Below, piece by piece: positions 10,887-62,535 of a stretch of DNA of 64,000 nucleotides. Position 1 is the stretch's first letter. The number at the start of each line of letters is the position of its first letter. A program made the translations under genes and the position numbers. This DNA is from an uncultured Gammaproteobacteria bacterium (GTDB lineage Bacteria > Pseudomonadota > Gammaproteobacteria > SZUA-140). The notes under the pieces are model-generated. The model did not search any database. It was not told the origin of the DNA and saw only the letters and a list, made by a program, of their open reading frames with translations. The stretch is from NCBI GenBank assembly GCA_947258425.1, contig CAMYIG010000001.1, positions 866-64,865 on the forward strand, written 5' to 3'.

Positions 10887-11537
10887 ATGATTAAGGCGCT
10901 TTTTCCCTCACAAGTTGTCACCGTCACGGCAACGCCTGCCATGTGGGATGGCAAACTCTACCCCGAAGAGGCCGCTTTCATCCAGAAAGCGGTCATTAAA
11001 CGGAGACGCGAATTCACTGCTGGTAGACTATGTGCAAAAGCGGCGTTAAAAGCATTGGGGGTCACCGGCTTTCCAGTGCTGTCAGGGGGAGAGCGTGAAC
11101 CACTCTGGCCACCCGGCATCACCGGTAGCATCTCCCATTGCGATGACTATTGCGGAGTCGCACTGGCGCGTCAAGCAACGCTCACAAGCATTGGGCTAGA
11201 CATTGAAACCATTAGACCGTTAGACGACGACCTCGAAGCGATGATCTGCACACCGCAGGAAATAACACGCGCTAACCTATCTCCACCACCCTCAGGCAGC
11301 AATTGGCAAAAATTTATATTCAGTGCCAAAGAGTCTGTCTATAAATCACTGTTTCCAGTCACGCGAATTTACCTGGATTTTCAAGACCTCGACATAACCT
11401 TCGACAGTGACAGGTTGCAATTTTCAGCCACTCTGCTCACCCAGCTTCCAACAGAATATAACCTGCCAGACACCCTGACTGGCCACTTCAGGTACAACGA
11501 AAGTCACATCTTTACCGGAATTTCACTATCCCAATAA
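10887..11537 (+). CDS. 4'-phosphopantetheinyl transferase (EntD/Sfp type)
   Basis: WPPGITGSISHC, GLDIE and FSAKESVYKS motifs. Converges on the end of the NRPS operon (2 nt gap). Confidence 0.85.
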   Translation: MIKALFPSQVVTVTATPAMWDGKLYPEEAAFIQKAVIKRRREFTAGRLCAKAALKALGVTGFPVLSGGEREPLWPPGITGSISHCDDYCGVALARQATLTSIGLDIETIRPLDDDLEAMICTPQEITRANLSPPPSGSNWQKFIFSAKESVYKSLFPVTRIYLDFQDLDITFDSDRLQFSATLLTQLPTEYNLPDTLTGHFRYNESHIFTGISLSQ

Positions 11538-11539: not shown

Positions 11540-12142
11540 CTAATATTTACCCAGAATAAGCCGCGCCTCACCCAGTAACATTGAGGGGTCATCCGCTGAT
11601 ACCGCTTTATAGACAGCCATTACATCCACATAATAAGTATTCCCAATCCCCCCTGAGCATGGCGGCAAATAACCGCCTACATCACCGCGATCGCTTCGGT
11701 GAAGTGCCTCAACATAAACGCCTTCCGGCAGGGCAGTGGTCTCAGCCGGAACAGAAGGGAACACAATGGAAGTCGTATCATTCGCCAGCGACATTCCTAT
11801 AACGCCATGGCCACCATTCAGCATCGGCTCGTAAGTTAAATCCCCAAATGCGAGCAGCACAGCATTTGCCTGTAATGGAATGTCAGAAATTAAGAGTGAA
11901 GGACTAGCCCCGCTGCCACCAAAATTGCGGCACTGCTGACCGTCTGGCACCGAGACCCCATCCCATTCTGAATCTGTGAAAGCGACCGCCAGTTGTGCGA
12001 CCTGTTCAGCTGGCGGGTAGGCACTCAATGGCAACTCAGGTTTGGCATCACGTTTAACGTAGAAAATAATGCCGACAAGCAGCCCTATAAAAATGATCGT
12101 GGACAGCAGGTATATCAGTTTATATGACTTATTAATATGCAT
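11540..12142 (-). CDS. Membrane-anchored periplasmic protein, possibly PEBP (YbhB/YbcL)-like
   Basis: N-terminal TM LIYLLSTIIFIGLLVGIIFYV. GGSGASPSLLISDIPLQANAVLLAFGD and GGYLPPCSGGIGNTYYVDVMAVY loosely parallel the YbhB blocks GDNISPxLxWxxVP...D and GYxGxxPPxGxHRYxFxVxAL. Last gene of the NRPS operon. Confidence 0.35.
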   Translation of the reverse strand: MHINKSYKLIYLLSTIIFIGLLVGIIFYVKRDAKPELPLSAYPPAEQVAQLAVAFTDSEWDGVSVPDGQQCRNFGGSGASPSLLISDIPLQANAVLLAFGDLTYEPMLNGGHGVIGMSLANDTTSIVFPSVPAETTALPEGVYVEALHRSDRGDVGGYLPPCSGGIGNTYYVDVMAVYKAVSADDPSMLLGEARLILGKY

Positions 12143-12169
12143 TTAACCAACCCGGGGAGCTCTCAAACC

Positions 12170-13009
12170 TTAGTCTCTATTTAATTCGCGCGCATAAGCT
12201 TGCGCCATCCAGCCACTAATAGTCTCAATTAACTTTTCTTTATCTTTTCTCAGGATATAGGTGTGGTCTGATTCCGGAAAATAATTAACCTGTAGCTGGT
12301 CATTAAAATTCACGGCGCTGAACATATCCTTAAATTGTCCGGCATAATTATAGTCCTCATGGCCGCCACTGTAGACATACAACAGGTTTACTTTGCGCTC
12401 AACCAACTCGCGCAACTCTGCCTCGGTCTGTTGCTTTGGGGGTAATACCCAGAAGTAATCATCCTGACCTGGTCCATCGTCGACACCATCCCCTGAGGGT
12501 GAAATTAGACGTTTAATTCGGTTAAACCATCCACTCAACGAAAACAGACGGGCGCCATAGCGGCGCATCAGAAATGCAGGGGTACGATATGCGTAGCCGT
12601 CAAGAAAAATGGCACCGACCACTCGAGGGTCAATCACAGCCCCCTTATGCGCATTGGCAGCGCCGGTACATAACCCAAACAGGATGAACTTTTTGACGCC
12701 GTATTTACTCGTAAAGAAATCCATTGCAGCCTGAATATCACCAATGATCTGTTCTTCATAAGCACGCGTATCTTTATGCTTCTGGCTATCACCAATCCCA
12801 GATAGATCGAACCGAAAGGATCGCACACCCTGCACTGCTAAACGACGGGCTAATTCAACATGTAACCTAAAGGGGCCGACTCGATGGAGTAAGCCTGCAT
12901 TGAGCATAATAACGGCAGGCAACGTATCGTTAGCGACGGCCTCATCCACTTCGGTCGCAATGCCAACGAGGTCTTTATCCTGCCCAAAAGTAAATACGCG
13001 CTCCATCAC
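12170..13009 (-). CDS. Alpha/beta-hydrolase fold protein with a cysteine nucleophile elbow (GLCTG)
   Basis: AVIMLNAG, FDLSGIGDS, elbow FILFGLCTGAANA, and candidate acid/His residues (GGHED, ESDHTY). Start overlaps the upstream gene stop (ATGA). Candidate exosortase A-associated hydrolase family member. Confidence 0.7.
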   Translation of the reverse strand: MMERVFTFGQDKDLVGIATEVDEAVANDTLPAVIMLNAGLLHRVGPFRLHVELARRLAVQGVRSFRFDLSGIGDSQKHKDTRAYEEQIIGDIQAAMDFFTSKYGVKKFILFGLCTGAANAHKGAVIDPRVVGAIFLDGYAYRTPAFLMRRYGARLFSLSGWFNRIKRLISPSGDGVDDGPGQDDYFWVLPPKQQTEAELRELVERKVNLLYVYSGGHEDYNYAGQFKDMFSAVNFNDQLQVNYFPESDHTYILRKDKEKLIETISGWMAQAYARELNRD

Positions 13010-13788
13010 TTAGCACCCTCCGAAAGCATCATCACAATATCCTGCAATAATGTACTGAGTAGTAGTGCTGATTCGAGTTCTGATAACGCATCCCAATTGC
13101 CAGCGTCATCAATCACGCGGTATTCGACATCGGCACTCTGTAAACAATCGTAAAGCGCTTGATACTCGTCTTTAGCATCAGAACCTACTATAAATACCCG
13201 CTTTGCTTTCGCTAAAAAATCTTTTTTCAGATCTAATGCTTCAATCTCAGAACACATTTCCTCAGAAAATGAAAAACCCAACAGTTCATTTTCGCCTTCG
13301 CCCTGCCGAGGTACGCTAAAACGATCAGGGTCAGCCAACATCTGCTGATGCATAGACTTTTGTGACGCGATGTAGTCTCGTCCACTGACCACGGGATCCC
13401 AGAGCACGAGCTCTTCAATATTCAAAGACTCTATTGAGGACGCAATCACAGCCCCCAGGCGCAACCCCACTAATGACACTCGCGTATTGCCCGACAGGCT
13501 CTTTAACTCTTCCACCGCCATCGAGACATCTTCGCAGCTTTGTGTCAGACGCCACTCTTCTGACGAGCCAGATGAATCACCCGTTCCATAGTAATCAAAT
13601 CGAAGCACATGAAAACCGGCCTTCGCCAGCAGGTCGGCCAGGCGATTAAACATTTTAAATGACCGCATGTATTCCTGGCCGAATGGATAGCAAAGCACAA
13701 CACTCGTATCTCGTAAGTCACGAGATCTTGGCGGGTGATAGATGCCAAACAGCTGCTTATTGGAAGCGCCAAAAAAGAATGGATTCAT
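13006..13788 (-). CDS. Alpha/beta-hydrolase fold protein with Ser replaced by Arg at the elbow (GLRLG)
   Basis: VVLCYPFGQE, FDYYGTGDSSG, elbow VSLVGLRLGAVIA. No obvious C-terminal catalytic His. Candidate second member of the exosortase A-associated hydrolase pair. Confidence 0.65.
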   Translation of the reverse strand: MNPFFFGASNKQLFGIYHPPRSRDLRDTSVVLCYPFGQEYMRSFKMFNRLADLLAKAGFHVLRFDYYGTGDSSGSSEEWRLTQSCEDVSMAVEELKSLSGNTRVSLVGLRLGAVIASSIESLNIEELVLWDPVVSGRDYIASQKSMHQQMLADPDRFSVPRQGEGENELLGFSFSEEMCSEIEALDLKKDFLAKAKRVFIVGSDAKDEYQALYDCLQSADVEYRVIDDAGNWDALSELESALLLSTLLQDIVMMLSEGAK

Positions 13789-13929
13789 TTTTAAATCTCA
13801 AACGCCAAAAAGAAAGTGAGGTGCCACTTATAAAAACCTAAAATAGCACTCATCATAAAAAACCATTATAAGCATAAATACTGTTATCCCGAAACTGACC
13901 TATCATCAAGCATTCAAAAACAAGCACAT

Positions 13930-16900
13930 CTATTTATTGAGCAACCTATTTTTAATTTTATTAAAAAAACCGGGAGATGCCGCAGCTTTTCGCTCAACGT
14001 TCGCTGACGAATCGACCGATCGTTGTTGTTGCCCCCCTGTGTCCTGTATATCAGGCTTACTGTCCACATCAGGAAGCGAATGCGTTGCCGCAATGGCTCC
14101 CAGCGACTCCATCAATAAAACCCTTGGTGAAATCACAACCGCGGTCTCTTTCCGAATGCGTTCAATCACCTTCATCGACAACAATGAGTGCCCACCCAGA
14201 TCAAAAAAATTATCGTGCACACTCACTCGTTCAATACCCAGTGCTTCACACCACACGGTAGCAAGGTATTTTTCTGTCCCTGTTTCAGGGGAGACATACT
14301 CATCATTTTCATAACTATCACCAAAGGGCGCTGGTAAACGTTTCCGATCTAATTTACCGTTCGGTGTCACCGGAAAACCGTCCATTTCAACGATGTGCTG
14401 AGGCACCATATATTCGGGTAACAGGGCACGCAAGTGCGTCCTTATTTCTGTCACTGTGGCGCCTTCGCCTCGCTTATAAATAAGATAGGCCACCAGGCGA
14501 TGATCACCAGGACGATTTTCCCAGACGTTCACTACAGCTCGCTCAATGGCATCATGTTCGCTGAGCGCAGACTCAATCTCACCCAGCTCTATTCTAAAGC
14601 CTCGCACCTTTACCTGATTATCAATACGTCGCATGTACTCAACATTACCATCATCGTGATAGAACGCGAGGTCACCTGTGCGATAGAGTCGACTATTTTC
14701 ATCAAATGGATTTGGAACAAAACGCTCTGCCGTCAATTCTGGGCGATTCAGATAATCGCGCGCAAGGCCAGCGCCACCAATATAAATCTCACCCGGGACA
14801 CCAACAGGCACAGGAAGGAGATGCTCATCAAGCAGATAAATCTGCGTGTTTTCGATCGGTCGACCGATCAATACTGTTGCCTCATCCGCATCACGTTTCA
14901 CTTGATAACGCATCGACCATACTGTCGTTTCTGTCGGGCCATAGAGATTCCATAACTCATCGCATTTTTCAACAAGTTGGCTTGCCAGTTCACGCGGCAT
15001 TGCTTCACCACCGCATAATACCTTCAGGCCTGATGTGCCCTGCCAATCTGATTCCAGTAGTAAACGCCAGGTAATCGGGGTTGCCTGCATAACAGTGATA
15101 TTTTCACTGGCGATAAGCGCCAGTAGACGGGTGCCATCAGAAGCCGCATCACGACTTGCGATGACCGTTGTAGCACCGGTCGTCAGTGGCAAATAGAGTT
15201 CAAGTACTGCAATATCAAAAGAGATAGTGGTCACAGCAAGCAGACGATCAACTTCTGTCAAACCTGGCGCACGCCGCATCGCACAAAGAAAGTTGACCAC
15301 GGCACGGTGCGGCAGCGTCACTCCCTTGGGCTTTCCGGTTGAACCGGATGTATAAATCACGTAAGCAAGATCATCAGATTGACCTTGCTTTAGCGGGTTT
15401 CGATCATCTTCTGCAGCAATCTTCGACCAGTCACTATCGATAAAGACGGTGCGCCCCGCATAACCCGTCAGACGTTCTTTTAACGCCGCCTGAATCACCA
15501 CTAACGGGGCCTGACTATCGCTCAACATATATGCCAGACGTTCTGTTGGATACGCAGGATCAAGCGGCACGTAAGCGCCCCCTGCTTTCAAAATGCCCAA
15601 CAACCCCACCATCATATCCAGTGAGCGCTCAACACATATGCCGATTAGTTGGCCGGGCTCGACACCTGCTTTAATTAAATAATGCGCTAGCTGGTTTGCT
15701 CGCTTATTTAGTTCGGCATAACTTAAATGCTTATCCTCAAAAACGCATGCGGATTTATCGGGAAAACGTTCAACTTGCGCCTCGAAGAGCTCATGCAGCT
15801 TGCTTTCAGCAGGAAACACTACGTTTGTGTTGTTCCACTCATTAATAATAAGTGACCTCTGCTCATCATCAAGTAACGACAGTGTTGCCAATTTTGCATC
15901 AGGTTGCTCAACAACCCGCATGAGCAGCACCTCAAACAGTTTAACCAAACGTTCAATGGTGTGTGCCTCGAATATATCAGCATTATATGCTAGTGCACCT
16001 GAAATTCCATCCGCGCTATCAGACAACATTAAATCAAGGTCAAAATGAGCAGTACCTCTTTCAAATTGATATTCACTCACTTCCACGCCAGACAAAGGAA
16101 AGTTATCGCACAAGGTTTCATTATGAAGCATAAACATCACCTGAAACATTGAGGTATGATTCAATGCTCGATGATGAGGAATCTTCTCCAGAATACTTTC
16201 GAACGGAAGATCCTGATGCGAAAAACAATCGACAGTAGACTCAGCAACATGCTCGACAATATCTCTAAACGTTGAGTCTGATGAAAACTCTGTACGCATC
16301 ACCAGATTATTAGAAAAATCCCCGAACATACTATCTAACTCTGGTCGGCTGCGGACCGTCGGTGACATACCCGTTAAAATATCTTCCTGGTTAGTATAGC
16401 GATACAGCAGACACTGGAATGCAGATAACAGCGACATAAATAAAGTCGAACCTAACGTTCCGCTTAATATTTTAAGTTGCTGGGAAAGCGTCTTCGGCAA
16501 TAAAAACCGATGGGTCCTACCCTTAAATGACATCACTCTTGGCCGCGGATGATCAGTCGGTAGATCAAGCACCGTGTTCGCATCCTGTAGATAGGCTTTC
16601 CAGTACTCCAGCTGGTTATTCACCTCATTAGACGCCAGCCAGTACTTTTCCCATAATGCAAAGTCACGGTACTGCGCAATGAAATTATCACCAGCCCCAT
16701 CGCCTACAGGGTTAGAGCCATCCGTTTTATGCGCGTTATAAGTAGTACTTATCTCGTTAACAAGTAACCGTACAGAAAGACCATCCATTGCGAAATGATT
16801 CGTTGTCATGATGAACACATGCTCATCTTCCGCCAACTGAATAACCAACACCCGTAAGTTAATATCATTGGTAAGATCAAACGGCGTACTAATTTCAGCA

Positions 16901-17325
16901 TTCACCGTTTCGAGCAGTTGACGTTCTTGCGCCTCAGAGGAGATAGCCTTCAAATCATCAACGACCATGCTAAACAGCGTCGATGGCAACAACTTCTGAT
17001 AAAGTTCATCCTCGCCCTCTAAACAGGCAGTTCGTAACACTTCATGACGTTGTACTACCTGCTGAAGACTTTTCTCGAGAATTGTAAGATCTAACTCACC
17101 CTTGAGTCGCACTATAAAAGATTCATTATAAGCAGAGCTTGCAGGATCCATCTGATAGATAAACCAGAAACGTCGTTGCGCTGATGACAAAGGCACCATT
17201 ACATCTTCAGCAACACGTGGCAGCGGTAATTGTTTCAATCCAATCTCGATGTCATCCAGCATTACGTCAAATAATTCGAGCTGATCTGAAGAGAGCGCAT
17301 CCAGCGCTTGATATACATCCTTCAT
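13930..17325 (-). CDS. NRPS3: C-A(Gly-like)-T, no TE/R/terminal C domain
   Basis: - C domain about 15886-17208: LSSAQRRFWF, NHFAMDGLS.
- A domain about 14326-15828: LAYVIYTSGSTGKPKGV, NLYGPTETT, YRTGDL, PNGKLDRK.
- T domain about 14086-14298: FFDLGGHSLL.
- Then a 51 aa tail.
- Hand-derived code DILQLGLVW(K).
- The ATG overlaps the NRPS2 stop (ATGA). Confidence 0.92.
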   Translation of the reverse strand: MKDVYQALDALSSDQLELFDVMLDDIEIGLKQLPLPRVAEDVMVPLSSAQRRFWFIYQMDPASSAYNESFIVRLKGELDLTILEKSLQQVVQRHEVLRTACLEGEDELYQKLLPSTLFSMVVDDLKAISSEAQERQLLETVNAEISTPFDLTNDINLRVLVIQLAEDEHVFIMTTNHFAMDGLSVRLLVNEISTTYNAHKTDGSNPVGDGAGDNFIAQYRDFALWEKYWLASNEVNNQLEYWKAYLQDANTVLDLPTDHPRPRVMSFKGRTHRFLLPKTLSQQLKILSGTLGSTLFMSLLSAFQCLLYRYTNQEDILTGMSPTVRSRPELDSMFGDFSNNLVMRTEFSSDSTFRDIVEHVAESTVDCFSHQDLPFESILEKIPHHRALNHTSMFQVMFMLHNETLCDNFPLSGVEVSEYQFERGTAHFDLDLMLSDSADGISGALAYNADIFEAHTIERLVKLFEVLLMRVVEQPDAKLATLSLLDDEQRSLIINEWNNTNVVFPAESKLHELFEAQVERFPDKSACVFEDKHLSYAELNKRANQLAHYLIKAGVEPGQLIGICVERSLDMMVGLLGILKAGGAYVPLDPAYPTERLAYMLSDSQAPLVVIQAALKERLTGYAGRTVFIDSDWSKIAAEDDRNPLKQGQSDDLAYVIYTSGSTGKPKGVTLPHRAVVNFLCAMRRAPGLTEVDRLLAVTTISFDIAVLELYLPLTTGATTVIASRDAASDGTRLLALIASENITVMQATPITWRLLLESDWQGTSGLKVLCGGEAMPRELASQLVEKCDELWNLYGPTETTVWSMRYQVKRDADEATVLIGRPIENTQIYLLDEHLLPVPVGVPGEIYIGGAGLARDYLNRPELTAERFVPNPFDENSRLYRTGDLAFYHDDGNVEYMRRIDNQVKVRGFRIELGEIESALSEHDAIERAVVNVWENRPGDHRLVAYLIYKRGEGATVTEIRTHLRALLPEYMVPQHIVEMDGFPVTPNGKLDRKRLPAPFGDSYENDEYVSPETGTEKYLATVWCEALGIERVSVHDNFFDLGGHSLLSMKVIERIRKETAVVISPRVLLMESLGAIAATHSLPDVDSKPDIQDTGGQQQRSVDSSANVERKAAASPGFFNKIKNRLLNK

Positions 17326-20300
17326 TTCACGACTCCTTTTTGCTCAACTAAACTGCGCGCGCTCAGTTGGTCACTCACTTCCCCTTTCGACAACTGTTTA
17401 ATCCGTTCAATCAGCCCTATCACACGCGAGTTAACATCCTCTTTAATCGCTACATTATTTTCACCATTCCGATATATTGCGCCACCCAATAGTGAGTGCA
17501 CAAAATAATGCCGCTCTTCAACATCAAACAACGCTCTAACCTTGTCAAAGTTTGCACCACCAATCTGACAAACAGCCAAATCGTGCTCACGCGCAGATTC
17601 ATCAATAAGGTGTGCGATGATCCCTGTTTCGAGTTTAGCCAGATAAGTAGAATACTTACCATAAGATGGCGCAACGGCACCAAGATCAGTGACAAAAAAT
17701 AGTGAAAATGCAGCTTCATCATAGATAGGAGTATTAACATACGGGACATGAATCGCGCGACTGATCTGCGCATCCTTTGTTAACGTGACCAAACGATGTT
17801 CAATGGGATGATAATAATATGTGCCCGCAGGAATGCCTTCGATTCTTCCTGGTTTAACATGCAGATAAACCTGCGTAGCGTAAAGCCCACCAGGGGAGGA
17901 ATAAAGATACTTTGGTTTACCATCCACCTCTATCTGATAAAAACATGACAGAAAATCACTAAACTGATCAAAAGGGATACACTCCAGTGAAAAACGTCGA
18001 TGACTAAAACGGTTCGCATATTTTTTCCTGAACGCTTCATCATCCACTGGTTTTTTGAGTTGTAAAAACTCTTTGCCTTCATCATTTTTTCGTATACCGG
18101 GCTGCGAATTCTTAAATGCCTCTCGCTCCGCGGGGTCGCGTAACTGCTGATATGAGGCAATCAGTGCTTTGACGCCCGAAAGTTCGCCTTCATCCTCGAC
18201 CGTTTTTTCCTTGTTGTCCTGCGCGCTATTGCTACGACAATAATCAGCAATGGCATTGACACTCTGAAGACGAAATATCTCATCCATACGCGGCCGAAAA
18301 CCAAACATCTTCTCCAGTTGATTACCAATCTTCACCATATCAAGCGAATTGGCACCCATTGATATCAGGTTCGCTTCATTCGACAGGTTATCCATTGATA
18401 ACAGCTCACAGATCATCGCATTCAACTGCGTAACAATCTCAGAATTATTAGCGGAGAGTGCGCTCTCTGAAGGACTGTCCTGCGGCTCCGGAAGTGATTT
18501 TCGATCCACTTTTCCGTTACGTGTCAGTGGCAGCTCATCCAGCGTTATAAACATGGCAGGCACCATGTAGTCTGGAAGTCTGCTAGCGAGATGTTCACGC
18601 AATTTATTTTCATCGATGGCATATCCCGGCGCCTTAACGAGATAAGCCAGCAGTCGCTGTTTTCCCGTCTGCGCAACCGTTACAACAGCGCTTATCACTG
18701 ACTCATGCTGTTGCAGTGCAGCCTCTACTTCACCACACTCAATCCGCTGCCCCTGAATCTTTATCTGAAAATCGGTACGGCCGACAAATTGAATATTGCC
18801 ATCGGGGAGGTAACGTCCAAGATCGCCAGTACGGTAAATCCGTTCACCAGTCTCCGGATGTTTTACAAATTTTTCAGCGGTTTTCTGTTCGTCCTGCCAG
18901 TACCCCATCGCAACGCCGATGCCGGCGACACACATCTCACCAGCCACCCAGTCAGGACACGGCGCAAGCGCCTCATCAAGAATATAATAGCGAGTATTCG
19001 CGATCGGCTTTCCGTATGGGATGCTTTTCCACGTGGGGTCAATCTGCTCAACGGGATACCAGATATTCCAGAGTGTCGTCTCCGTCGGCCCACCCACACT
19101 CACCAGTTGCGCACCTGTTTCTTTTTTAAGCCGCGCTGGCAACCCCAGTGGAATCCAGTCCCCCCCCAGAAATGCAGTCCGTAGACTATCGGGCGCGGTA
19201 CCGGGGTGACTCTCTACGTAGCACAGCAGCATATCCATCATTGCCGGTACAGAATTCCAGATGGTGGGCCTAAACTTCTGCATCATATCCACCCAATGAG
19301 CCGGGTCTCGACGCTCTTCTGGATCGGGCATCACGATTGAGCCGCCAGCACCCAGCATGCCAAACATGTCATAAATCGACATGTCATGATGCAGTGCAGT
19401 GACCGCTAATACACGGTCATCCGAACCCACATTAAAACAGCGGTTGGTTTCAACGATGGCATTCACCACGCCTCGATGGTTTAACATCACCCCTTTCGGT
19501 GTTCCGGTCGAACCAGAGGTATAGATGACATAAGCAAGATCATCTGGGGTCTGCAAATGAGCTAATGGCCCATCATCATATTCAGCGATATCATCGCTAT
19601 CCACACATAGCAGGGTTAAACCTTCAGGCCAGTTAATTTTATCAACCAACCACGACTGCGTTAATACTAGTTCAACGCCACTATTTGCTAACAACTTGCA
19701 TAAGCGCTCGCTCGGCTGCAAGGCATCCATTGGCGCATAGGCAGCACCCGACTGCAGCACACCATAGGCCGCAACCGCTTGCTCCCATCCTTTATCCATT
19801 ACAATCGCGACCAGCTTATTCGGCATGGCGTTCAGTTCACGTAAGCGTCTTCCCCAGCGGTTTGCTAACCCCAATAACTCTCTATAATTTAATGTTCGTT
19901 GAGTGGTAATCACGGCATCACTATCACCGGCTGTTTCAGCATGCGCAATAAACAGGTCTTGCAGCAGCCCTTGTGGCACATCGCGCTGATTATCATTGAC
20001 CTGTGCTCGACGTATTTTCTGCGACTCAGGCAGTAATCTCGTCGTAATCTCAAGCCAGCTCGCCTGCCATGCAGATTGATCAGCGGCTAGCCACTCCAGT
20101 AGCTGAATATAGGCATGTCCCATATCCTCCTGCAGCCCATCCGGGAAAAGCTCGCTGACATAGTCCCAGTCAACACCTAAGACACCCTTATATTCATAAA
20201 TATGATTATCAAGCCAGACCTGCGGCGTCTGATTAACGGCAAAAGTGACATTACCAATCAATCTTGCCGCATTAACGGTATACGCACTCGTGCCATCGGG

Positions 20301-21503: not shown

Positions 21504-21641
21504 ATGCTATTAATTTTTTTATTGAATACTTTTTTAGCTTAATACCATCATCATAATCATCAGTTAAATACAGGATTTAAACCGAATACAACGACAGCGA
21601 TTATCACAATCAACATGCAAAAGTGAGGATAATATTCTTTA

Positions 21642-24600
21642 TCATTCGTCTTCAAGCTCACCCAATAGCGCAAGCAACTCATCTTCGTTTACATTCTCCA
21701 GCATCATCTGTTCAATCTTGCTGGAAAAATCGACCAATCGAGGCGAAAGAAAGATCGCTTGAAGTGGAATATCAATCGCAAAGTCCTGTCGGATGCGTGT
21801 AATCAACTGCACCGCGATCAACGAATGCCCGCCAATCTCGAAGAAATTATCGTACAACCCCACCTGCTTGAGCCCCAGTAACGCCTGTAAAATAGTAGCG
21901 ACCTGAATCTCAACTTCGCTAGCAGGTGCGACATATTCTGCCTGAGTATCAATATTCCCTTGCTCCGGCACTGGGAGTTTTTTACGATTAATTTTTCCAT
22001 TCGGTAATAATGGCAATCCCGCTAGCACGACGTAATTTACGGGCACCATAAATTCAGGTAAATGTTGTCCCAGATAGTTGCGTAGCGCATTGATATTGAT
22101 GTCAGTGCCTGTGTCTGGCACCACATACGCAACAAGCTTTTTATTCCCGGGCTCATCTTCTCGCAGTAGCACAAGCGCGTCATTCACTTCGGTATTCTCT
22201 AACAGAAGCTTCTCGATCTCACCCAGCTCAATCCGATAGCCATGTAGCTTGACCTGATGGTCGATGCGCCCCATGAACTCCAGCCGCCCATCACGACCCA
22301 TGCAGACCAGGTCGCCCGTTCGATACATACGGTCATTTAAATCACCACTCACACTGTTTTTTACAAACTTTTCAGCAGTGAGCTCGGGGCGATTCAGATA
22401 ACCCCGTACCACGCCGTCACCGGCAATTACCAGTTCACCCGGCACACCCAGCGGCTGAAGTTGCATATTGTTATCCAGCACATAGGTCTGTGTATTCGCA
22501 ATCGGGGAGCCCAATGGAATATCTGCGTCTGCCTCATGTAAATGATACGTGGTTGACCAGATCGTCGTCTCAGTCGGCCCGTACATATTCGTCACTTGAC
22601 CTTTCACCAATGAACGCAGCTTTACTGCCAACTGACTCGAAAAGGCTTCACCGCCCACCATCATATGAGACAAGCATCCCAGTGCGTGATGCATCTGCTG
22701 GTCTGATGCCAGCATATTGGCCATCGTTGGCGTACATTGAAAATGCGTGACGTTGTGTCGCTCGATAAGTGCAGCGATGGAATAATCCTTATCCGCCCCA
22801 TCAGACTGCGGCGGGTTAGCCGCCTCCTTCACCTGGCTTAGATAATGGAGGTGGGCCAGTACTTTTTCGGTCTCGATGCCAAAATCGATCAGACAACCGA
22901 TCTCATCCACCCCTATTTCCTTGAGTTGATCTGCACGTTCAACGCATCGTTCAACATTCCCAAAGAGCCCGCTGTGGTTATAATAGCGATCAAACGCGAA
23001 GGCCAGCAGGCTATCTCTATCCTCATCAGAAATATTATTAAAAAACTCATCCATGGTCTGCTCTGTACCCTCGGATACCTGCTTCCACGCCGGGCTATGC
23101 CACGCGGCCGCTTTCACCAGAGAAACTGCACTTTCCAGATAGTCCATCATCGGCTGCTGTGCAACATCACGCACCTGCGCCTCATCATCGCCGATGAAGG
23201 TGTGTAGCATTAATGTGACTTGCCCATCACCTGCATGACCGGCCTCTTTCCAGGCGCTACGATAGAGCCGAATATTCTCTGCCACCTTTTCAATATCCTG
23301 TCCGAGCAGGTGCGTCAGCACATGTGCACCAATTGATCCAGCCTGTCGGAAGGTGTCAGGATTCACCGCAACCGTTACCCAAATTGGTAACTTTTCCTGA
23401 ATAGGTCTAGGGTAGGTGCGGACTTCAACATCGCCTTTCGGCCCCGCAAACGTGACAGCCTCACCTTTCCATAATTGCTGGATAGTCTCAACGGAATCAA
23501 ACATGATCTCTTTTGCGCGCGCATGATTCTCAGGCTTGATCACAAAATCATTCGGCTGCCAGCCGGGCGCAATCGAAAGCCCCGCACGGCCATTGGAAAG
23601 GTTATCCACCACCGACCACTCTTCTGCGATGCGAATAGGGCTATGCAGTGGCACCACACAACTGCCCGCACGAATACCGATGTTTTGCGTAGTGGCCGCC
23701 AGTGCGGCACCGATGACTGAGGGGTTAGGGTACAGTCCGCCAAAGGCACCGAAATGTCGCTCAGGTGTCCATAGCGCTTCGAAGCCATTTTTGTCGGCGT
23801 ATTTAGCGCTTTCGAGCAGTAACTTATACTTATCTGCCTCGCGAGATGCCTCGTCTTTTACAAAATTCCAGTAAAAAAGACTAAAGGCAATCGGCTGAGC
23901 GGGGTATCGTGTCGCCACTTCCCCAGCCTTCAGGTCATCACCGGCGTAGAGCACCAGTTTAAACCCTCGACAGAGACTCCAGAAAATCTCAAGCACGGAG
24001 ATATCAAACGATATACTGGTCACAGCCAACCACACACCCGGGGAATCATGCGCAATGCGCTCATCCATGCCTGCGAAGAAATTCACCACATTACGGTGTT
24101 CGACCATCACCCCTTTGGGACGCCCGGTCGAGCCCGAAGTATATATCACATAAGCCAGACTCGATGACGCGCACGGGATTTCAAGATTATTATCGCTCTC
24201 GACATCGATTCGACTTCGCTCAAGATCAACCTGCAACAACTTTTCACCGGGCAGATAATTTGCGTAATCAGACTGGGTAACTACCAACGCCAGCTCTGCG
24301 TCATCGGCCATATAAACCAAACGATCTTTGGGATAAGTGGGATCCAGTGGCACATAGGCCGCGCCTGTTTTCCACGTTGCCAATAGCGCGATCACCATAT
24401 CAAAGGAACGATCCAACATCACACCGACCAGATCATCTACACCCACGCCATGTTTTACCAGATAGTGCGCCAGCTGATTTGCGCGAGCATTCAACTCATG
24501 ATAACTGAGGCTGTCATTGTGAAATGCCAGCGCGGATGTATCCGGTGTAGACACTACTTGTTGTTCAAACAGCTGAAATACACATCGATTTTCAGGGTAT

Positions 24601-27600
24601 GCAGTGGCAGTACCCGTGGCTATTTTTAATATGGCCTGTTGCTCTTCTCTCGGTAAAATCGGCACACTCGCTACCGGCGTATTGAGATCTTCAACCATGA
24701 CCTCCAGCACTTTTAGATAGTGCGCCAGCATACTTTCCATACGCGCTTGCGAGAAAAGGTCGGTGCAATATTCAAGTACCGCCTCCAGTCCAGAGGGACG
24801 CTCCCACATATAAAGGGTCATGTCATATTTTGAAGTACCACTATGAGTGTCCAGCTGTATCGTCCGCATGCCGGGAAGATTCATCACCGATTCATGCTCA
24901 AGCGCATCAAAAATAAACATCACCTGAAAAACCGGTGCATAACGTAAATCACGCTCTGGATTGAGCGCCTCAACCAATTTATCGAATGGCAATCCCTGAT
25001 GCGCAAAATCTGCAATGGTCGTCTTACGCACGCGGGCGATCAACTCTCTCAGTGAAACATCGCCTGATAGATCACAACATAAAGGGAGTGAGTTCATAAA
25101 CAGTCCGAGCATCGCTTCGGTCTCGAGCGGCTCGCGGTTCGCGACCGCAGTACCGACCACAAAATTCTCCTGTGATGAGTAGCGGTGGAGCAGTAATTGA
25201 TAGGCCGCCAACAGCAGCATAAATAGACTGGAACGCTCCTGTTGCGCAATGATATTAAGTCGCTGATGTAGCGCAGACGGTATCTTCAGGGTCACAGAAC
25301 TGCCATTAAATTGCTGCACGGACGAGCGTGGGAAATCAGTTGGTAACTCCAGTACCGGCGGCATCTGCTTTAACCGAGGCAGCCAGTAATCAATCTCCGC
25401 CTGAAGACGATCATCGGCCATATAAGTACTTTGCCAGGCAGTATAGTCAGCGTAATCGGCTGAGAGCTGAGGTAATTGCGGTTCAACGCCACTCACCATC
25501 GCACCATATACCTGCTCGAGCTCGCTTGCCAGCAGACGCACTGACCAGCCGTCAAACACGATGTGATGGATCACAAACGTCATCACATATTTTGATGGTG
25601 CCAGTTTGATAATATTGCAGCGCCACAACGGTCCCTGTTCGATATCGAACAGAGTGTGCGCCTCATTTGTGATCAACTTATCTATTTCCGCCTGCGGATC
25701 TGACGCCTGACTCAAGTCATGCATGAATACCGGCAAGTCGACCTGACCCGCTATCACCTGTGTCGGCGCGCCCCCTTTCACTGAAAACGTGGTACGCATT
25801 GAAGCGTGGCGCTTAACGATTACCGCCATCGCTTGTTTAAAGAGCTCGGGATCAAAATCACCATCGATCTTAAATGCATAAGGGATGTTATAGAGTGCGC
25901 CCACCTGCTCCATTTGCTCAAAAAACCAGATGCGACTCTGCATAAATGAAAGCGGGATATCGCCAGCATGTTCTTTTTTGTGTAGCACTGGTTGTGTCAC
26001 GGCCACATCCGTTACTGCCGATGACGAGATATATTTCGCAAGTTCAGCAATGGTGGGGGAGTTAAAGAGTGCAGTAATAGAAAGCTGCACACCGAACTCA
26101 CGCCGCAACCGGGCGACCATCTGCGCGGCCAGCAGGGAGTGGCCACCGGCATGAAAAAAATTAGCGTTCACACCTACTCTCTCTACACCCAAAAGGGCCT
26201 GCCATATCGCTGCGATCCTGGTTTCTGTATCGCCTGTCGGTGCAACATAATCACGATCTTCGAACAGGTCCGCGTACCGAGGATGGGGTAGCGCCTTTTT
26301 ATCCACCTTGCCATTCGCCGTTAAAGGAATCTCCGCAACAAAGACAAAATGCTGTGGAACCATATGGACAGGCAGACCATTGGCGACATAATCACGTAGT
26401 GCATCGACCTGTAGGCTGTCAGACTTTTTAACCACATACGCCACCAGGCGCTGGTCACCCACACCCAATTCAATGACATTCAATGCAACCTGCTTAACCT
26501 CGGGGTACGCAATGAGAAGCGATTCGATCTCACCAAGTTCTATTCTAAAGCCGCGCAATTGCACCTGGTCGTCAATTCGCCCTAGGTATTCCAGTTCATT
26601 ATTGGAGAGGCGGCGCGCTAAATCGCCAGTACGATACAGTCGGATGACAGTGCCGTTTTCTAACGTGTGGTTAATAAAACGTTCTGCGGTCAAGTCAGGC
26701 CGATTCAAATAGCCCTTCGATAGACCATCGCCGGCAACATACAGCTCCCCTTTCTGCCCATCGATAACAGGCTTCATCGCGTCATCAAAAAGATAGAGTT
26801 TCAGGTCTGGAATGGCCCGGCCAATCAGACTCCCCTTCGGGTGATCCACATCATCACGAGAAATGGGACGATACGTCACGTGCACGGTTGTTTCGGTGAT
26901 ACCGTACATATTAATCAATTGCGGGGCGTTGTCTCCGTGACGGGAAATCCACGGTTTTAAAGCGGCCAGGTTGAGCGCTTCACCGCCGAAGATCACATAA
27001 CGTAACGCCAGTGTATCTGCTGTGTGTCGCTCTTCATCCACCAGCTGTAGCTGCTGGAATGCTGAGGGGGTTTGATTCAGGACGGTGACCCCTTGCGATA
27101 TCAGCAGGGTATAAAACAATTCCGGGGTGCGTGCTGTTTCCGCTGACACAATCACCAGGCTGCCACCGTAGCTCAGCGCGCCCCAAATCTCCCACACAGA
27201 AAAATCAAAGGCATATGAGTGAAACAGGGTCCAGACATCATCCACACCAAAATCAAACCAGTGGTTAGTGGAATCAAAAAGCCGGGATACATTTTTATGA
27301 GTTACCTGCACTCCTTTGGGTGCCCCGGTAGAGCCCGAGGTATAGATGACATAGGCAAGGTGCTCGTCAGTCACCGCTACAGCAGGATTTTCTACTGTCG
27401 ATGAACCCTTCTCCATCGCATCAATCAATAAAATTTTAGCCGAACAGGCGGGTAAATTTTCGACCAGCGTCTGCTGCGTTACCAGTACAGCAGGTTTGGC
27501 ATCATTCAGGGTGTAGGCAATACGGGAAGCGGGGTAATTCGGGTCAACCGGCACATAGGCAGCGCCTGCCTTTAAAATACCCAAAATACCGATCACTGTA

Positions 27601-27815
27601 TCAAATGAGCGCGAAACACATAACCCAACCAGTGAACCCGGCGTGACCTCCTGTGTGATAAGCGCATTGGCGAGCTGGTTTGCCTGAGCATTAAGCTCAC
27701 CATAGGTAAGCTGGCGATCCTCCCAGATCAAGGCCGTCTTATCAGGATTACGTTGCGCATTGAGTTCAAAGCGCTGGTAACAGGTCGAAAGAGTAGTCAC
27801 ACAATCACCATTCAC
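21642..27815 (-). CDS. NRPS1: A(Thr-like)-T-C-A(Gly-like, split by a luciferase-like monooxygenase domain)-T
   Basis: - A1 about 26271-27788: LAYVIYTSGSTGAPKGV, AFDFSVWE, NMYGITETT.
- T1 about 26031-26243: FFHAGGHSLL.
- C about 24666-25973: HHIVFDGWS.
- A2 about 21966-24593: LAYVIYTSGSTGRPKGV, SFDISVLE ... NMYGPTETT, YRTGDL, PNGKINRK.
- T2 about 21726-21938: FFEIGGHSLI.
- Starts directly with an A domain (loading module). Confidence 0.92.
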   Translation of the reverse strand: MNGDCVTTLSTCYQRFELNAQRNPDKTALIWEDRQLTYGELNAQANQLANALITQEVTPGSLVGLCVSRSFDTVIGILGILKAGAAYVPVDPNYPASRIAYTLNDAKPAVLVTQQTLVENLPACSAKILLIDAMEKGSSTVENPAVAVTDEHLAYVIYTSGSTGAPKGVQVTHKNVSRLFDSTNHWFDFGVDDVWTLFHSYAFDFSVWEIWGALSYGGSLVIVSAETARTPELFYTLLISQGVTVLNQTPSAFQQLQLVDEERHTADTLALRYVIFGGEALNLAALKPWISRHGDNAPQLINMYGITETTVHVTYRPISRDDVDHPKGSLIGRAIPDLKLYLFDDAMKPVIDGQKGELYVAGDGLSKGYLNRPDLTAERFINHTLENGTVIRLYRTGDLARRLSNNELEYLGRIDDQVQLRGFRIELGEIESLLIAYPEVKQVALNVIELGVGDQRLVAYVVKKSDSLQVDALRDYVANGLPVHMVPQHFVFVAEIPLTANGKVDKKALPHPRYADLFEDRDYVAPTGDTETRIAAIWQALLGVERVGVNANFFHAGGHSLLAAQMVARLRREFGVQLSITALFNSPTIAELAKYISSSAVTDVAVTQPVLHKKEHAGDIPLSFMQSRIWFFEQMEQVGALYNIPYAFKIDGDFDPELFKQAMAVIVKRHASMRTTFSVKGGAPTQVIAGQVDLPVFMHDLSQASDPQAEIDKLITNEAHTLFDIEQGPLWRCNIIKLAPSKYVMTFVIHHIVFDGWSVRLLASELEQVYGAMVSGVEPQLPQLSADYADYTAWQSTYMADDRLQAEIDYWLPRLKQMPPVLELPTDFPRSSVQQFNGSSVTLKIPSALHQRLNIIAQQERSSLFMLLLAAYQLLLHRYSSQENFVVGTAVANREPLETEAMLGLFMNSLPLCCDLSGDVSLRELIARVRKTTIADFAHQGLPFDKLVEALNPERDLRYAPVFQVMFIFDALEHESVMNLPGMRTIQLDTHSGTSKYDMTLYMWERPSGLEAVLEYCTDLFSQARMESMLAHYLKVLEVMVEDLNTPVASVPILPREEQQAILKIATGTATAYPENRCVFQLFEQQVVSTPDTSALAFHNDSLSYHELNARANQLAHYLVKHGVGVDDLVGVMLDRSFDMVIALLATWKTGAAYVPLDPTYPKDRLVYMADDAELALVVTQSDYANYLPGEKLLQVDLERSRIDVESDNNLEIPCASSSLAYVIYTSGSTGRPKGVMVEHRNVVNFFAGMDERIAHDSPGVWLAVTSISFDISVLEIFWSLCRGFKLVLYAGDDLKAGEVATRYPAQPIAFSLFYWNFVKDEASREADKYKLLLESAKYADKNGFEALWTPERHFGAFGGLYPNPSVIGAALAATTQNIGIRAGSCVVPLHSPIRIAEEWSVVDNLSNGRAGLSIAPGWQPNDFVIKPENHARAKEIMFDSVETIQQLWKGEAVTFAGPKGDVEVRTYPRPIQEKLPIWVTVAVNPDTFRQAGSIGAHVLTHLLGQDIEKVAENIRLYRSAWKEAGHAGDGQVTLMLHTFIGDDEAQVRDVAQQPMMDYLESAVSLVKAAAWHSPAWKQVSEGTEQTMDEFFNNISDEDRDSLLAFAFDRYYNHSGLFGNVERCVERADQLKEIGVDEIGCLIDFGIETEKVLAHLHYLSQVKEAANPPQSDGADKDYSIAALIERHNVTHFQCTPTMANMLASDQQMHHALGCLSHMMVGGEAFSSQLAVKLRSLVKGQVTNMYGPTETTIWSTTYHLHEADADIPLGSPIANTQTYVLDNNMQLQPLGVPGELVIAGDGVVRGYLNRPELTAEKFVKNSVSGDLNDRMYRTGDLVCMGRDGRLEFMGRIDHQVKLHGYRIELGEIEKLLLENTEVNDALVLLREDEPGNKKLVAYVVPDTGTDININALRNYLGQHLPEFMVPVNYVVLAGLPLLPNGKINRKKLPVPEQGNIDTQAEYVAPASEVEIQVATILQALLGLKQVGLYDNFFEIGGHSLIAVQLITRIRQDFAIDIPLQAIFLSPRLVDFSSKIEQMMLENVNEDELLALLGELEDE
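22821..23903 (-). other. Luciferase-like monooxygenase (MOx) domain inserted into the second A domain of NRPS1, between the A4 and A5 cores
   Basis: About 360 aa between SFDISVLE (A4 region) and VTHFQCTPT/MVGGEAF/NMYGPTETT: FSLFYWNFVKDE...ESAKYADKNGFEALWTPERHFGAFGGLYPNPSV...GRAGLSIAPGWQPNDF...MLHTFIGDDEAQ...GVDEIGCLIDFG. This is a TIM-barrel LLM-like sequence. Confidence 0.8.
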
Positions 27816-27882
27816 ATTTTTATATTAGCATTGATTTCAGCCTGTTTAAGTTCAGACCCTGTTGGACAACAAATAACATTAA

Positions 27883-28617
27883 TTAGTGCGGTGAGTTACT
27901 AGACCGCCAGAATGTCACGGCCTGTGACATCCCCTCAAATACATGAAATCCCGGATATTGTTCAACATTCCATGTATCATATTTTTCTAGCCAACCGACC
28001 GATGCAAGTACTTTATCGTGCACTGGTGTGACATACACCAGTCGAAAAGCACGAGGATTCTTATCCAGCGAGCAGCGAATCGCCGCAAGTACTTCTAACA
28101 CTGTAATTTCCCCAAAGGGGTTGAACATAAACACGACGGTTACATCGTCAAAATCATACGCCTGAGCCAACCCTTCACGAAGCTCGATGTCAGCCTTCCG
28201 CCCGCGCAATTTCTGAGCATTTAAACGCGCAATGGGTAAAAAACTGCTGTTATATTCAAGCCCAATCACGCGCCCAACGTCTGTTCGCGCAGCGACGCTG
28301 AGTGTTCGCCCTTTACCACATCCCAGATCGACAAAGACATCTCGAGCATCTAAAGCGAGATGTTTCATGATGTCATGCAACAACAGGTACGGCGTTGCTT
28401 CATAACGAAAGCCGTCCTGTGGCATACCGATATCAACGATTGCCTCGGTATTGATCCCTAAATAGCGCTCCCAAAACTTGTCATGGAGTCTTATTTCATA
28501 GGGTGCAGCCCCAATTGCCTCACCCTTTCTAAAAATATAACGCGCCAGAAGAACATCTTTGTTTTTGATAATGAATCTGGGTAACTTCACAAAAAGAAGT
28601 TTCAGCTGGTTTAACAA
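27883..28617 (-). CDS. Class I SAM-dependent methyltransferase, first gene of the NRPS operon
   Basis: Motif I VFVDLGCGKGR, post-I VIGLEYN, motif II-like VVFMFNPF. Located 67 nt upstream of NRPS1 on the same strand. Confidence 0.75.
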   Translation of the reverse strand: MLNQLKLLFVKLPRFIIKNKDVLLARYIFRKGEAIGAAPYEIRLHDKFWERYLGINTEAIVDIGMPQDGFRYEATPYLLLHDIMKHLALDARDVFVDLGCGKGRTLSVAARTDVGRVIGLEYNSSFLPIARLNAQKLRGRKADIELREGLAQAYDFDDVTVVFMFNPFGEITVLEVLAAIRCSLDKNPRAFRLVYVTPVHDKVLASVGWLEKYDTWNVEQYPGFHVFEGMSQAVTFWRSSNSPH

Positions 28618-36070: not shown

Positions 36071-36073
36071 GGG

Positions 36074-37243: not shown

Positions 37244-37244
37244 C

Positions 37245-40493: not shown

Positions 40494-40535
40494 AAAATTT
40501 CAGACTTAATGCACCATCGCTCACTGTTCATCCCT

Positions 40536-42387: not shown

Positions 42388-42390
42388 ACA

Positions 42391-44792: not shown

Positions 44793-44829
44793 TGAATAGT
44801 ACCCCGCGCATCCATTCCAACCATCACCA

Positions 44830-46293: not shown

Positions 46294-46294
46294 A

Positions 46295-48130: not shown

Positions 48131-48176
48131 ACCCTATCCTATAAACAATTATTTACCAGAAAGCATTAGCTTTAAA

Positions 48177-49205: not shown

Positions 49206-49294
49206 TTATTTATTAATCCAGTTTGTCATTCTAGCTTTCCTATCAACTAGCCCATTAAAATATTTACAACCAACAGCACCACTAATTCTTAAAC

Positions 49295-50842: not shown

Positions 50843-50845
50843 TTC

Positions 50846-53292: not shown

Positions 53293-53341
53293 CTTAACTT
53301 GCCTTTAGTATTAATATTAATGTACAGCCGTAAAATAGGCA

Positions 53342-54351: not shown

Positions 54352-54367
54352 TGGCACGGTTAGTGCT
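54352..54367 (+). promoter_or_regulatory. Sigma-54 (-24/-12) promoter for the PEP-CTERM protein gene
   Basis: TGGCAC-ggtta-GTGCTT against the consensus TGGCAC-N5-TTGCW. GG/GC spacing is correct, and the element sits about 40 nt upstream of the ATG at 54407. A sigma-54 activator (prsR) is encoded nearby. Confidence 0.6.
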
Positions 54368-57322: not shown

Positions 57323-57339
57323 CCTATTCCCCTTGAATA

Positions 57340-58929: not shown

Positions 58930-58938
58930 AAAAACTGC

Positions 58939-60312: not shown

Positions 60313-60315
60313 CTT

Positions 60316-62400: not shown

Positions 62401-62535
62401 TCAATTATCATCGGCGATGAGAAAACCCTAAAATGGCAAAATATTATAAATTATGAACATCAAAATATAGCGCACTTACACGCAGTCCGTGACATTCCAG
62501 ACAGGACTCGCCTCATCAGTGAAACCAGTTAACGA

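Follow-up and report, generated by a model that had tools for sequence, protein, structure and literature searches.

The 64-kb window analysed here (positions 866 to 64,865 of contig CAMYIG010000001.1, from an uncultured gammaproteobacterium; all positions below count from the first letter of this whole stretch) contains a gene block that encodes a four-module nonribosomal peptide synthetase (NRPS), distributed over the proteins NRPS1, NRPS2 and NRPS3, together with two mutually related alpha/beta-fold proteins that we term hyd2 and hyd1. The block lies within an exosortase A (XrtA)/PEP-CTERM locus for exopolysaccharide (EPS) synthesis. We lean towards a functional link between the two, with the NRPS acting as an accessory of the XrtA/EPS locus, a reading that is supported but unproven. 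On balance, we also regard the block as an enlarged version of the carrier cassette associated with XrtA systems, which consists of an AMP-ligase, an acyl carrier protein (ACP), hydrolase 1 and hydrolase 2.

The locus is a bona fide XrtA/PEP-CTERM type 1 EPS system. Five XrtA-system models, for exosortase A, PrsK, PrsR, PrsT and a PEP-CTERM protein, were matched above their cut-offs (score/cut-off: TIGR03109, 234/208; TIGR02916, 764/300; TIGR02915, 684/503; TIGR02917, 595/312; TIGR02595, 27/16), as were those for EpsB_2, the export protein, the chain-length determinant, the tyrosine kinase, the TIGR03016 outer-membrane protein (OMP) and the TIGR03015 ATPase. These results confirm the first-pass annotation of this DNA, which had placed an ExeA-like ATPase on one side of the NRPS genes and an XrtA/PrsKRT/EPS gene set on the other. 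Since the ATPase stands on one side and the remaining XrtA genes on the other, the NRPS is located inside the gene set of the system. The canonical ligase (TIGR03098) and decarboxylase (TIGR03099) are absent from the 64-kb window, in which the NRPS adenylation (A) domains match TIGR03098 far below its cut-off.

The hyd2/hyd1 pair

Each of the two alpha/beta-fold proteins matches its own corresponding NCBIfam model, which ranks first by a wide margin, and these are nearly the sole family matches. hyd2 scores 104 bits with TIGR03101 (hydr2_PEP, "hydrolase 2, exosortase A system-associated"; cut-off 203), and hyd1 scores 81 bits with TIGR03100 (hydr1_PEP, "hydrolase 1, exosortase A system-associated"; cut-off 168). 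Because the scores are about half the curated cut-offs, the pair is, as judged from its sequences, a sister subfamily of TIGR03100/TIGR03101 and not an equivalog. Its layout is that of the named pair: the two genes are adjacent, overlap at their stop and start codons and share the window with XrtA.

The Cys of the G-x-C-x-G motif is invariant among the 87 hyd1 homologues aligned, and His249 and Asp137 are present in 86 and 84 of them, respectively. Among 84 homologues of hyd2, 83 have Arg in the sequence G-x-R-x-G, where the window's hyd2 has Arg110, and a conserved His is absent. hyd1 looks like a Cys-nucleophile hydrolase or transacylase and is presumed to be the catalytic off-loading enzyme, while hyd2, which seems to have lost its nucleophile, is presumed to be a non-catalytic partner at the position of a thioesterase (TE). 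A Cys-x-Pro motif of hyd2 (C33, P35), which is at least 90% conserved, falls in the region of the oxyanion hole of active alpha/beta hydrolases. The AF2 model of hyd1 (pLDDT 86) has a generic alpha/beta hydrolase fold. Comparison of hyd1 with the PDB by sequence profile, and of its model by Foldseek, returned only ordinary esterases and lipases and gave no clue to an acceptor.

The two genes are adjacent in 85 of 88 loci, and they are fused into a single protein in Shinella, Azospirillum, Mycetohabitans and Cupriavidus metallidurans CH34 (plasmid or chromid records). In a further type of fusion, found in 11 of 80 loci, hyd2 forms the end of an NRPS of the type [C]-A-T-hyd2 (C, condensation domain; T, carrier domain) and follows the last carrier domain by 10-25 residues, which is the usual place of a TE. 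A gene for a 4'-phosphopantetheinyl transferase (PPTase) comes after hyd1 in 16 of 86 other loci, or in 18 of 88 if L001 and L002, which belong to the window's own lineage, are included.

Two of the single-protein fusions are located on plasmids of Azospirillum lipoferum 4B (L089) and Mycetohabitans rhizoxinica (L092), where they follow genes for an ACP, an acyl-CoA dehydrogenase, an amino acid-[ACP] ligase, a DUF1839 protein and a GH2 glycosidase. Both contain the Cys elbow (GLCAG or GICSG); the Arg elbow (GLRAG) was found by motif scan only in the Mycetohabitans protein.

Recurrence of the pair with EPS and exosortase genes

A database search with hyd1 returned 1417 relatives, and a scan of one genome per species yielded at least 583 encoding stretches; the pair is present in at least several hundred species. 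Eighty loci were kept for the analysis of neighbourhoods, in which six-frame open reading frames (ORFs) of the loci were searched with the window's own proteins in flanks of 10 kb. An EPS marker was present within this distance in 43 of the 80 species-level loci. An A-domain, NRPS or polyketide synthase (PKS) gene was present in 44, usually in the order C-A-T, hyd2, hyd1 and often with a PPTase gene thereafter. NRPS and EPS genes occurred together in 12 loci, EPS genes without NRPS in 31, and neither of them in five. Housekeeping genes from the flank of the window served as an internal control and are not conserved near hyd1.

In loci with EPS genes only, the genes for the export protein, chain-length determinant, kinase and OMP are followed by hyd2 and hyd1, and these by a FemAB-like GNAT gene or a syntenic run of genes. 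FemAB-like GNAT homologues come after hyd1 in 14 loci, most of them EPS loci of Luteibacter. The part of the window between 34.9 and 43.5 kb (unk388, GT_stp3, deAc_b, GT_TuaC and GT_stp2) is syntenic with hyd2-hyd1 loci of the Rhodanobacteraceae. Synteny over positions 34904-44792 (388-aa membrane protein, GT4, deacetylase, GT4, GT4 and Wzy-like protein) was recorded for L023, L028, L052, L060, L063, L064, L067, L068, L071, L074, L076, L081 and L084; in such loci of Rhodanobacter, Dyella and Luteibacter, hyd2-hyd1 stands directly after the export, kinase and OMP genes with no NRPS in view.

In the hyd1 tree, combinations of an NRPS with EPS or exosortase genes are spread over some nine separate clades. 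In two loci of the Kangiellaceae (L040 and L083), EpsB2, A-T-hyd2, C-A-T, hyd2 and hyd1 are followed by a TIGR03015 ATPase that scores above its cut-off, and in L061 and L065 the order is C-A-T-hyd2, hyd1, EpsB2, export protein, chain-length determinant and kinase. A locus from the Acidobacteriaceae (L069) has an exosortase, a PrsT-like protein, A-T-hyd2 and hyd1; this exosortase is unassigned, as its best scores, to the XrtD, XrtW and XrtA models, are all below cut-off. In L009, hyd2 and hyd1 are followed by an exosortase W above cut-off. An alphaproteobacterial chromosome (L015) carries the same array as the window, with A(MOx)-T, Cy-A-Ox, C-A-T, hyd2, hyd1 and PPTase (MOx, monooxygenase; Cy, cyclization; Ox, oxidase domain), beside a WcaJ-type priming transferase. 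In the cultured strain Variovorax paradoxus VAI-C, genes for PKS/NRPS, PPTase, hyd2, hyd1, Wza, Wzc, a sugar transferase, GDP-fucose synthase, glycosyltransferases and a flippase are arranged head to tail on one strand. Finally, an EPS locus on a Shinella plasmid combines a fused hyd pair with an ACP, an AMP-ligase (567 against the TIGR03098 cut-off of 592) and a pyridoxal phosphate (PLP)-dependent decarboxylase (413 against the TIGR03099 cut-off of 478). The latter two enzymes tie the hyd superfamily to the named XrtA-associated cassette.

The tie to the exosortase/EPS machinery that had been proposed at first is strengthened by three findings, namely that the pair matches only XrtA-associated models, that it is present in EPS loci without an NRPS, and that NRPS, pair and EPS genes recur together in unrelated lineages. 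It is nevertheless guilt by association.

Domain structure and predicted product of the NRPS

Specificity codes were derived from a MAFFT alignment of the four A domains to the GrsA segment, with the MOx insert cut out beforehand. The GrsA reference segment itself yielded the textbook code, DAWTIAAICK. The recomputed Stachelhaus codes (A1, DFWNIGMVHK; A2, DILQMGMIWK; A3, DMYNFGVLWK; A4, DILQLGLVWK) reproduce those which had been read by hand and assigned to Thr, a Gly-like residue, a Cys-like residue and Gly. The C motif is normal in NRPS1 (HHIVFDG for HHxxxDG) and reads NHFAMDG in NRPS3, where the catalytic His is retained. All four carrier domains have the serine, and the T motifs of NRPS1 are GGHSL. 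NRPS2 has the features of a thiazole-forming Cy-A-T-Ox module, that is, a DxxxxD cyclization motif, a Cys-like code and an FMN nitroreductase-type oxidase downstream of T.

Residues 1311-1663 of NRPS1 match TIGR04020 with 484 bits (cut-off 244), and the alignment places the corresponding insertion, at about residues 1295-1677, between core motifs A4 and A5 of A2. A Gly-type A domain that is split at this point by a luciferase-like monooxygenase is the architecture of MtaG and MelG. The terminal, TE-linked position of those modules is not shared by NRPS1, whose Gly module is internal, has no TE and is followed by a Cy module. For MtaG/MelG, alpha-hydroxylation of the glycyl residue was proposed to result in N-C cleavage, with a terminal amide and an alpha-keto acid on the carrier as products (PMC11411415). 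The prediction of a Thr-Gly-(thiazole)-Gly peptide fits the codes as well as the presence of Cy and Ox but overlooks the MOx domain inside the first Gly module. As MOx would alpha-hydroxylate this Gly and might split off Thr, the line probably does not make a plain Thr-Gly-thiazole-Gly tetrapeptide.

Canonical release by a TE, a reductase or a terminal C domain at the last module is not encoded: in accordance with the first-pass annotation, PF00975 and the other domains of this kind are absent from every protein of the block, and NRPS3 stops after T. The seven carrier-dependent steps that had been counted fit the four carrier domains only if they are taken as four loadings plus three condensations. 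Two features had gone unnoticed, namely the MOx insertion and the location of the alpha/beta-fold proteins at the release position.

The closest full-length homologues of NRPS2 are uncharacterised, share 50-56% identity with it and are each preceded by an A(MOx)-T gene. The dyad of X-A(MOx)-T followed by Cy-A-T-Ox is a conserved two-gene unit in several phyla. What stands upstream of the hydroxylated Gly varies: L094, L097, L007 and L026 have a formylation domain there, L095 and L096 have a C domain, and the window has its Thr loading module. The N-acyl group on the hydroxylated Gly may be dispensable, interchangeable or sacrificial, and a dispensable group would fit a cleavage of the MtaG kind, with a glyoxylyl unit left behind. 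The formyl group or C-domain-delivered acyl group upstream in the relatives hints that the glyoxylyl or hydroxyglycyl part, and not the amide, is retained. A literature search for NRPS modules with formylation and MOx domains did not find this arrangement described. Downstream, three of the dyad clusters end in an ordinary TE (L094, L095 and L096); L095 also has an ABC transporter and, downstream, three glycosyltransferase genes, and CapD-like, WecB-like and glycosyltransferase genes come after L096. In loci other than the window, the last module before hyd2 is often specific for Gly or Ser.

Proposed mechanism

We propose the following sequence of events. The Sfp-type PPTase would, as its family suggests, prime the four T domains. 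According to the computed codes A1 would load Thr and A2 Gly, and the two residues would then be joined. By analogy to MtaG/MelG, the N-acylglycyl thioester would be alpha-hydroxylated by MOx, whereupon the hydroxyglycine could be kept or N-C cleavage could discard threoninamide and leave a glyoxylyl thioester. Cy-A3-T3-Ox would add Cys and convert it to a thiazole, with Ser and an oxazole as a possible alternative, and C-A4-T4 would add the terminal Gly.

In place of a TE, the hyd2/hyd1 pair would release the chain. hyd2, with its Arg instead of a nucleophile at the TE position, probably docks to the last carrier domain, and hyd1 probably takes over the chain as a thioester on its invariant Cys114 in order to pass it either to water or to an acceptor provided by the neighbouring polysaccharide genes. 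Judged from the gene neighbourhood, the likeliest acceptor would be a hydroxyl, or an amino group freed by de-N-acetylation, on a lipid-linked EPS repeat unit. A free sugar amine or hydroxyl would be the simplest candidate because deacetylase-family genes are abundant in these loci.

Evidence against the link and alternative explanations

Several observations weigh against a functional link between NRPS and EPS genes. The curated cut-offs of TIGR03100 and TIGR03101 are reached neither by the pair of the window nor by any relative tested, and hyd1 could simply hydrolyse the thioester. An EPS marker is missing from the visible 10 kb in 32 of the 44 NRPS-linked loci, a number that is an upper bound on absence because the NRPS itself fills most of one flank. 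The loci with EPS genes only form one clade of Lysobacterales (Rhodanobacter, Luteibacter and Dyella) in the hyd1 tree and amount to roughly one evolutionary event. The conserved Gly(MOx)-thiazole dyad serves as a building block with no fixed tie to either hyd2/hyd1 or EPS loci; given that it is also found in the TE-terminated clusters L094-L096, the peptide chemistry is not specific to EPS loci. Co-regulation through PrsR gains little from a scan for sigma-54 elements, in which only two sites with at most one mismatch were found in the window, both intergenic and correctly oriented (upstream of hyd2 and of the PEP-CTERM gene): the total count equals chance expectation, and the site at hyd2 has TC instead of GC at -12.

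The best-placed alternative, which we consider possible though not probable, is an independent secondary-metabolite cluster that merely adjoins the EPS genes and makes a small thiazole peptide such as a metallophore or a signal, with hyd2/hyd1 as a trans thioesterase, a free acid as product and export by an unlinked system. It is in line with the common annotation of Cy-A-T-Ox proteins of the NRPS2 type as pyochelin-synthetase-like, with the TE of L094, L095 and L096 and the transporter of L095, with the lack of EPS genes from the visible flank in most NRPS-linked hyd loci, and with the ordinary esterases and lipases that are the Foldseek neighbours of hyd1. By contrast, the block itself encodes neither a transporter nor a TonB receptor by Pfam and NCBIfam, as had been stated before, nor a regulator; the pair also occurs inside NRPS-free EPS loci and in single-strand NRPS-hyd-Wza-Wzc arrays; its sole related curated families are those of exosortase systems; and the XrtA-system ATPase lies beyond the NRPS, which places the latter within the genes of the system and not beside them.

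Another possibility, which appears quite improbable, is that exosortase A, once it has cleaved PEP-CTERM proteins, joins them to the NRPS product or to a moiety that hyd1 has placed on a lipid or glycan; this nucleophilic acceptor would be comparable to the peptide bridge of lipid II in the case of sortases. The product could retain a free amine, as the first module is an A-T loading module without an N-capping domain; yet it is the N-terminal Thr that the MOx step may strip. Pairs directly beside differing exosortases (XrtA in the window, XrtW in L009, the unassigned enzyme in L069) and the FemAB-like GNAT gene adjacent in the window and in 14 other loci would suit this idea, which is countered by many hyd loci (Variovorax, Shinella, Rhodanobacteraceae) that have no exosortase gene in the visible flanks of 10-12 kb.

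Recent insertion of a mobile biosynthetic island without shared function into the EPS locus is very unlikely and was set aside, since the NRPS block, whose NRPS genes are richer in GC (0.45-0.51) than the EPS genes (0.39-0.46), stays within the GC span of the housekeeping flank (0.47-0.55) and of the contig, no transposase, integrase or tRNA gene was found at its borders, and the same kind of adjacency is repeated in unrelated lineages, even if the block does separate the TIGR03015 ATPase from the remaining XrtA genes.

Organization of the window

The features of the window are listed in Table 1. All seven minus-strand ORFs and the converging PPTase gene of the first-pass annotation were recovered, the latter ending 3 bases from the NRPS block and being of the Sfp type by Pfam. 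The ATGA overlap between NRPS2 and NRPS3 at 17322-17325 is as noted then. An overlap of hyd2 and hyd1 at 13006-13009 does exist as well, although it reads GTGA instead of ATGA (an ATG begins at 13006, resulting in TGATG). That the block is a single operon is plausible: gaps of 67 bp (methyltransferase/NRPS1), 138 bp (NRPS1/NRPS2) and 141 bp (NRPS3/hyd2) make one transcript conceivable and no more. A scan of the block for terminators and promoters gave no signal above chance.

Table 1. Features of the 64-kb window
Feature	Position	Strand	Basis
XrtA/PEP-CTERM system-associated ATPase	8334..9332	-	TIGR03015, 363 bits vs 324.5
Sfp-type PPTase, converging on the block	10887..11537	+	Pfam 4PPT_N + ACPS
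200-aa protein with N-terminal membrane anchor (single transmembrane helix)	11540..12142	-	Sequence inspection
hyd1, 279 aa, alpha/beta hydrolase with Cys114 (G-x-C-x-G), Asp137, His249	12170..13009	-	TIGR03100, alignment
hyd2, 260 aa, alpha/beta-fold protein with Arg at nucleophile position (G-L-R-L-G)	13006..13788	-	TIGR03101, alignment
Candidate sigma-54 -24/-12 element TGGCACctcacTTTCT, 23 nt upstream of hyd2 start	13811..13826	-	<=1 mismatch, weak
NRPS3, 1131 aa, C-A4(Gly)-T4, last module	13930..17325	-	Pfam
NRPS2, 1393 aa, Cy-A3(Cys-like)-T3-Ox (nitroreductase-type), thiazole-forming module	17322..21503	-	Pfam/NCBIfam
NRPS1, 2057 aa, A1(Thr)-T1-C-A2(Gly, MOx-split)-T2	21642..27815	-	Pfam/NCBIfam
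MOx, FMN luciferase-like monooxygenase inserted in A2	22827..23885	-	TIGR04020
Methyltransferase, class I SAM-dependent, first gene of the block	27883..28617	-	Pfam Methyltransf_25/11
FemAB-like GNAT (Acetyltransf_6), divergent from methyltransferase	29255..30481	+	Pfam PF13480, E 1.4e-20
EPS block: glycosyltransferases, WecB, three deacetylase-family genes, Wzy-like, flippase, OMP, tyrosine kinase, chain-length determinant, export	34904..53983	-	NCBIfam/Pfam
Sigma-54-like element, 40 nt upstream of PEP-CTERM gene	54352..54367	+	<=1 mismatch
PEP-CTERM protein, C-terminus VPEPATIAMMGLGLIGLGFMARRRNS	54407..54970	+	TIGR02595, PepA-like matches; tail read directly
PrsT, XrtA-EpsI fusion, PrsR, PrsK, EpsB_2 priming transferase	55043..63927	-	NCBIfam above cut-offs

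The 200-aa protein encoded at the end of the block has no Pfam or NCBIfam match, and homologues were found only in L001 and L002, which represent the same lineage of metagenome-assembled genomes. The methyltransferase was considered as a gene shared among EPS loci and dropped, its homology to the Rhodanobacter-type loci L060 and L088 being limited to an E value of about 1e-12.

Between the NRPS genes and the glycosyltransferase block lie the genes for the FemAB-like GNAT, a lipoprotein with tandem-95 repeats and a secreted beta-helix protein. The last of these is Pel9A-like (33019-34614) and has a 659-bit homologue at positions 11531-13123 of L007, a contig of 701 kb, where it adjoins a different NRPS-PKS cluster that also terminates in hyd2/hyd1. 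The shared neighbour hints either at a related organism or at a partnership that has been conserved. The exosortase (57340-58929) is a 529-aa XrtA-EpsI fusion that passes the XrtA model narrowly (234 vs 208) and scores almost as well, 228, with the exosortase W model (cut-off 425). Exact look-ups with EpsB2 and PrsK, aimed at sequence past the right end of the window, returned no record. Within the EPS block, a protein of 611 aa (46295-48130), whose gene is located between those for the flippase and a deacetylase, has an APH-type kinase domain at its C-terminus as the only recognizable domain and no NCBIfam match. In the housekeeping flank, two cyclic-nucleotide-binding domains and a rhodanese domain are combined in one protein (2650-3849).

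Implications

Taken alone, the NRPS of the window is a moderate oddity. It does, however, bring to light a widespread and uncharacterised pair for chain release that connects thiotemplate enzymes with polysaccharide loci. The signature of the pair (an Arg partner and a Cys-His-Asp partner), its replacement of a TE in many NRPS and PKS lines and its presence in EPS loci across phyla lead to the hypothesis that thiotemplate products are moved to surface polysaccharide. We tentatively suggest, without considering it probable, that hyd2/hyd1 is a widespread and hitherto unrecognised off-loading device in which a pseudo-thioesterase and a Cys transacylase move carrier-bound aminoacyl, peptidyl or lipopeptidyl chains onto EPS precursors or an exosortase acceptor.

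If so, bacteria in many phyla would decorate their EPS with non-ribosomal peptides, and in the present case an NRPS of four modules under the XrtA system would supply the decoration, a hydroxyglycine- or glyoxylyl-thiazole-glycine unit. The pair also flags a large class of NRPS and PKS clusters whose products may never occur as free metabolites, and the role of the ligase, ACP and hydrolase genes that accompany exosortase A systems becomes a testable question. Cultured carriers of the pair are at hand in Variovorax paradoxus, Luteibacter, Rhodanobacter, Dyella and Cupriavidus metallidurans CH34.

Comparison with known systems

The XrtA-associated cassette defined in NCBIfam/TIGRFAMs consists of a ligase (TIGR03098), a PLP-dependent decarboxylase (TIGR03099), a carrier, hydrolase 1 (TIGR03100) and hydrolase 2 (TIGR03101). 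Its function has, to our knowledge, never been tested. Like this cassette, the block of the window combines adenylating enzymes and carriers with two mutually related alpha/beta-fold proteins in an XrtA/EPS locus. Unlike it, the window has no decarboxylase, the single ligase and ACP give way to four NRPS modules that include MOx, Cy and Ox domains, and members of the hyd subfamily also accompany exosortase W or lie in loci without a visible exosortase in the flank. The first-pass annotation knew of no described XrtA locus with a multimodular NRPS. Our literature searches on exosortases with NRPS and on exosortase-associated hydrolases agree in that they found no paper describing the arrangement or characterising the hydrolases, which Haft (2006) does not mention; the simpler cassette is, however, already named in NCBIfam/TIGRFAMs, and the NRPS variant is present in other public genomes.

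The split Gly module resembles that of MtaG and MelG (myxothiazol and melithiazol; C-A-MOx-A-T-TE) but differs in being the second of four modules, in lacking a TE and in feeding a cyclization module. Thiazole-forming Cy-A-T-Ox modules of the kind found in NRPS2 are known from epothilone (EpoB), bleomycin and myxothiazol (MtaC/D type) biosynthesis. Their DxxxxD motif, Cys-like code and oxidase after the carrier are shared by NRPS2, whereas its upstream partner, a hydroxylated glycine, sets it apart. Amino acid:[carrier protein] ligase clusters of Alpha- and Betaproteobacteria, with an aaRS-like ligase, an ACP and an acyl-CoA dehydrogenase, end in fused hyd2-hyd1 in Azospirillum and Mycetohabitans. 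They have no NRPS modules and lie beside a GH2 glycosidase gene instead of an EPS export set.

N-acyl amino acid synthases were linked to PEP-CTERM/exosortase systems by Craig, Cherry and Brady (2011, J Bacteriol 193:5707), as cited in PMC8776678 and PMC11631085. That linkage is the closest published precedent for carrier-dependent acyl-amino-acid genes tied to exosortase systems. The synthases are GNAT-like enzymes that use acyl-ACP, belong to a different family, make different products and have neither an NRPS nor a hydrolase pair.

In the Dlt system for D-alanylation, the adenylation enzyme DltA and the carrier DltC cooperate with DltB and DltD in transfer to teichoic acid. Although the Dlt transfer proteins are unrelated to hyd2/hyd1, handle a single amino acid and act on Gram-positive teichoic acids, the route proposed here would, by analogy, follow the same logic of adenylation, loading of a carrier and dedicated transfer to a surface polymer instead of release.

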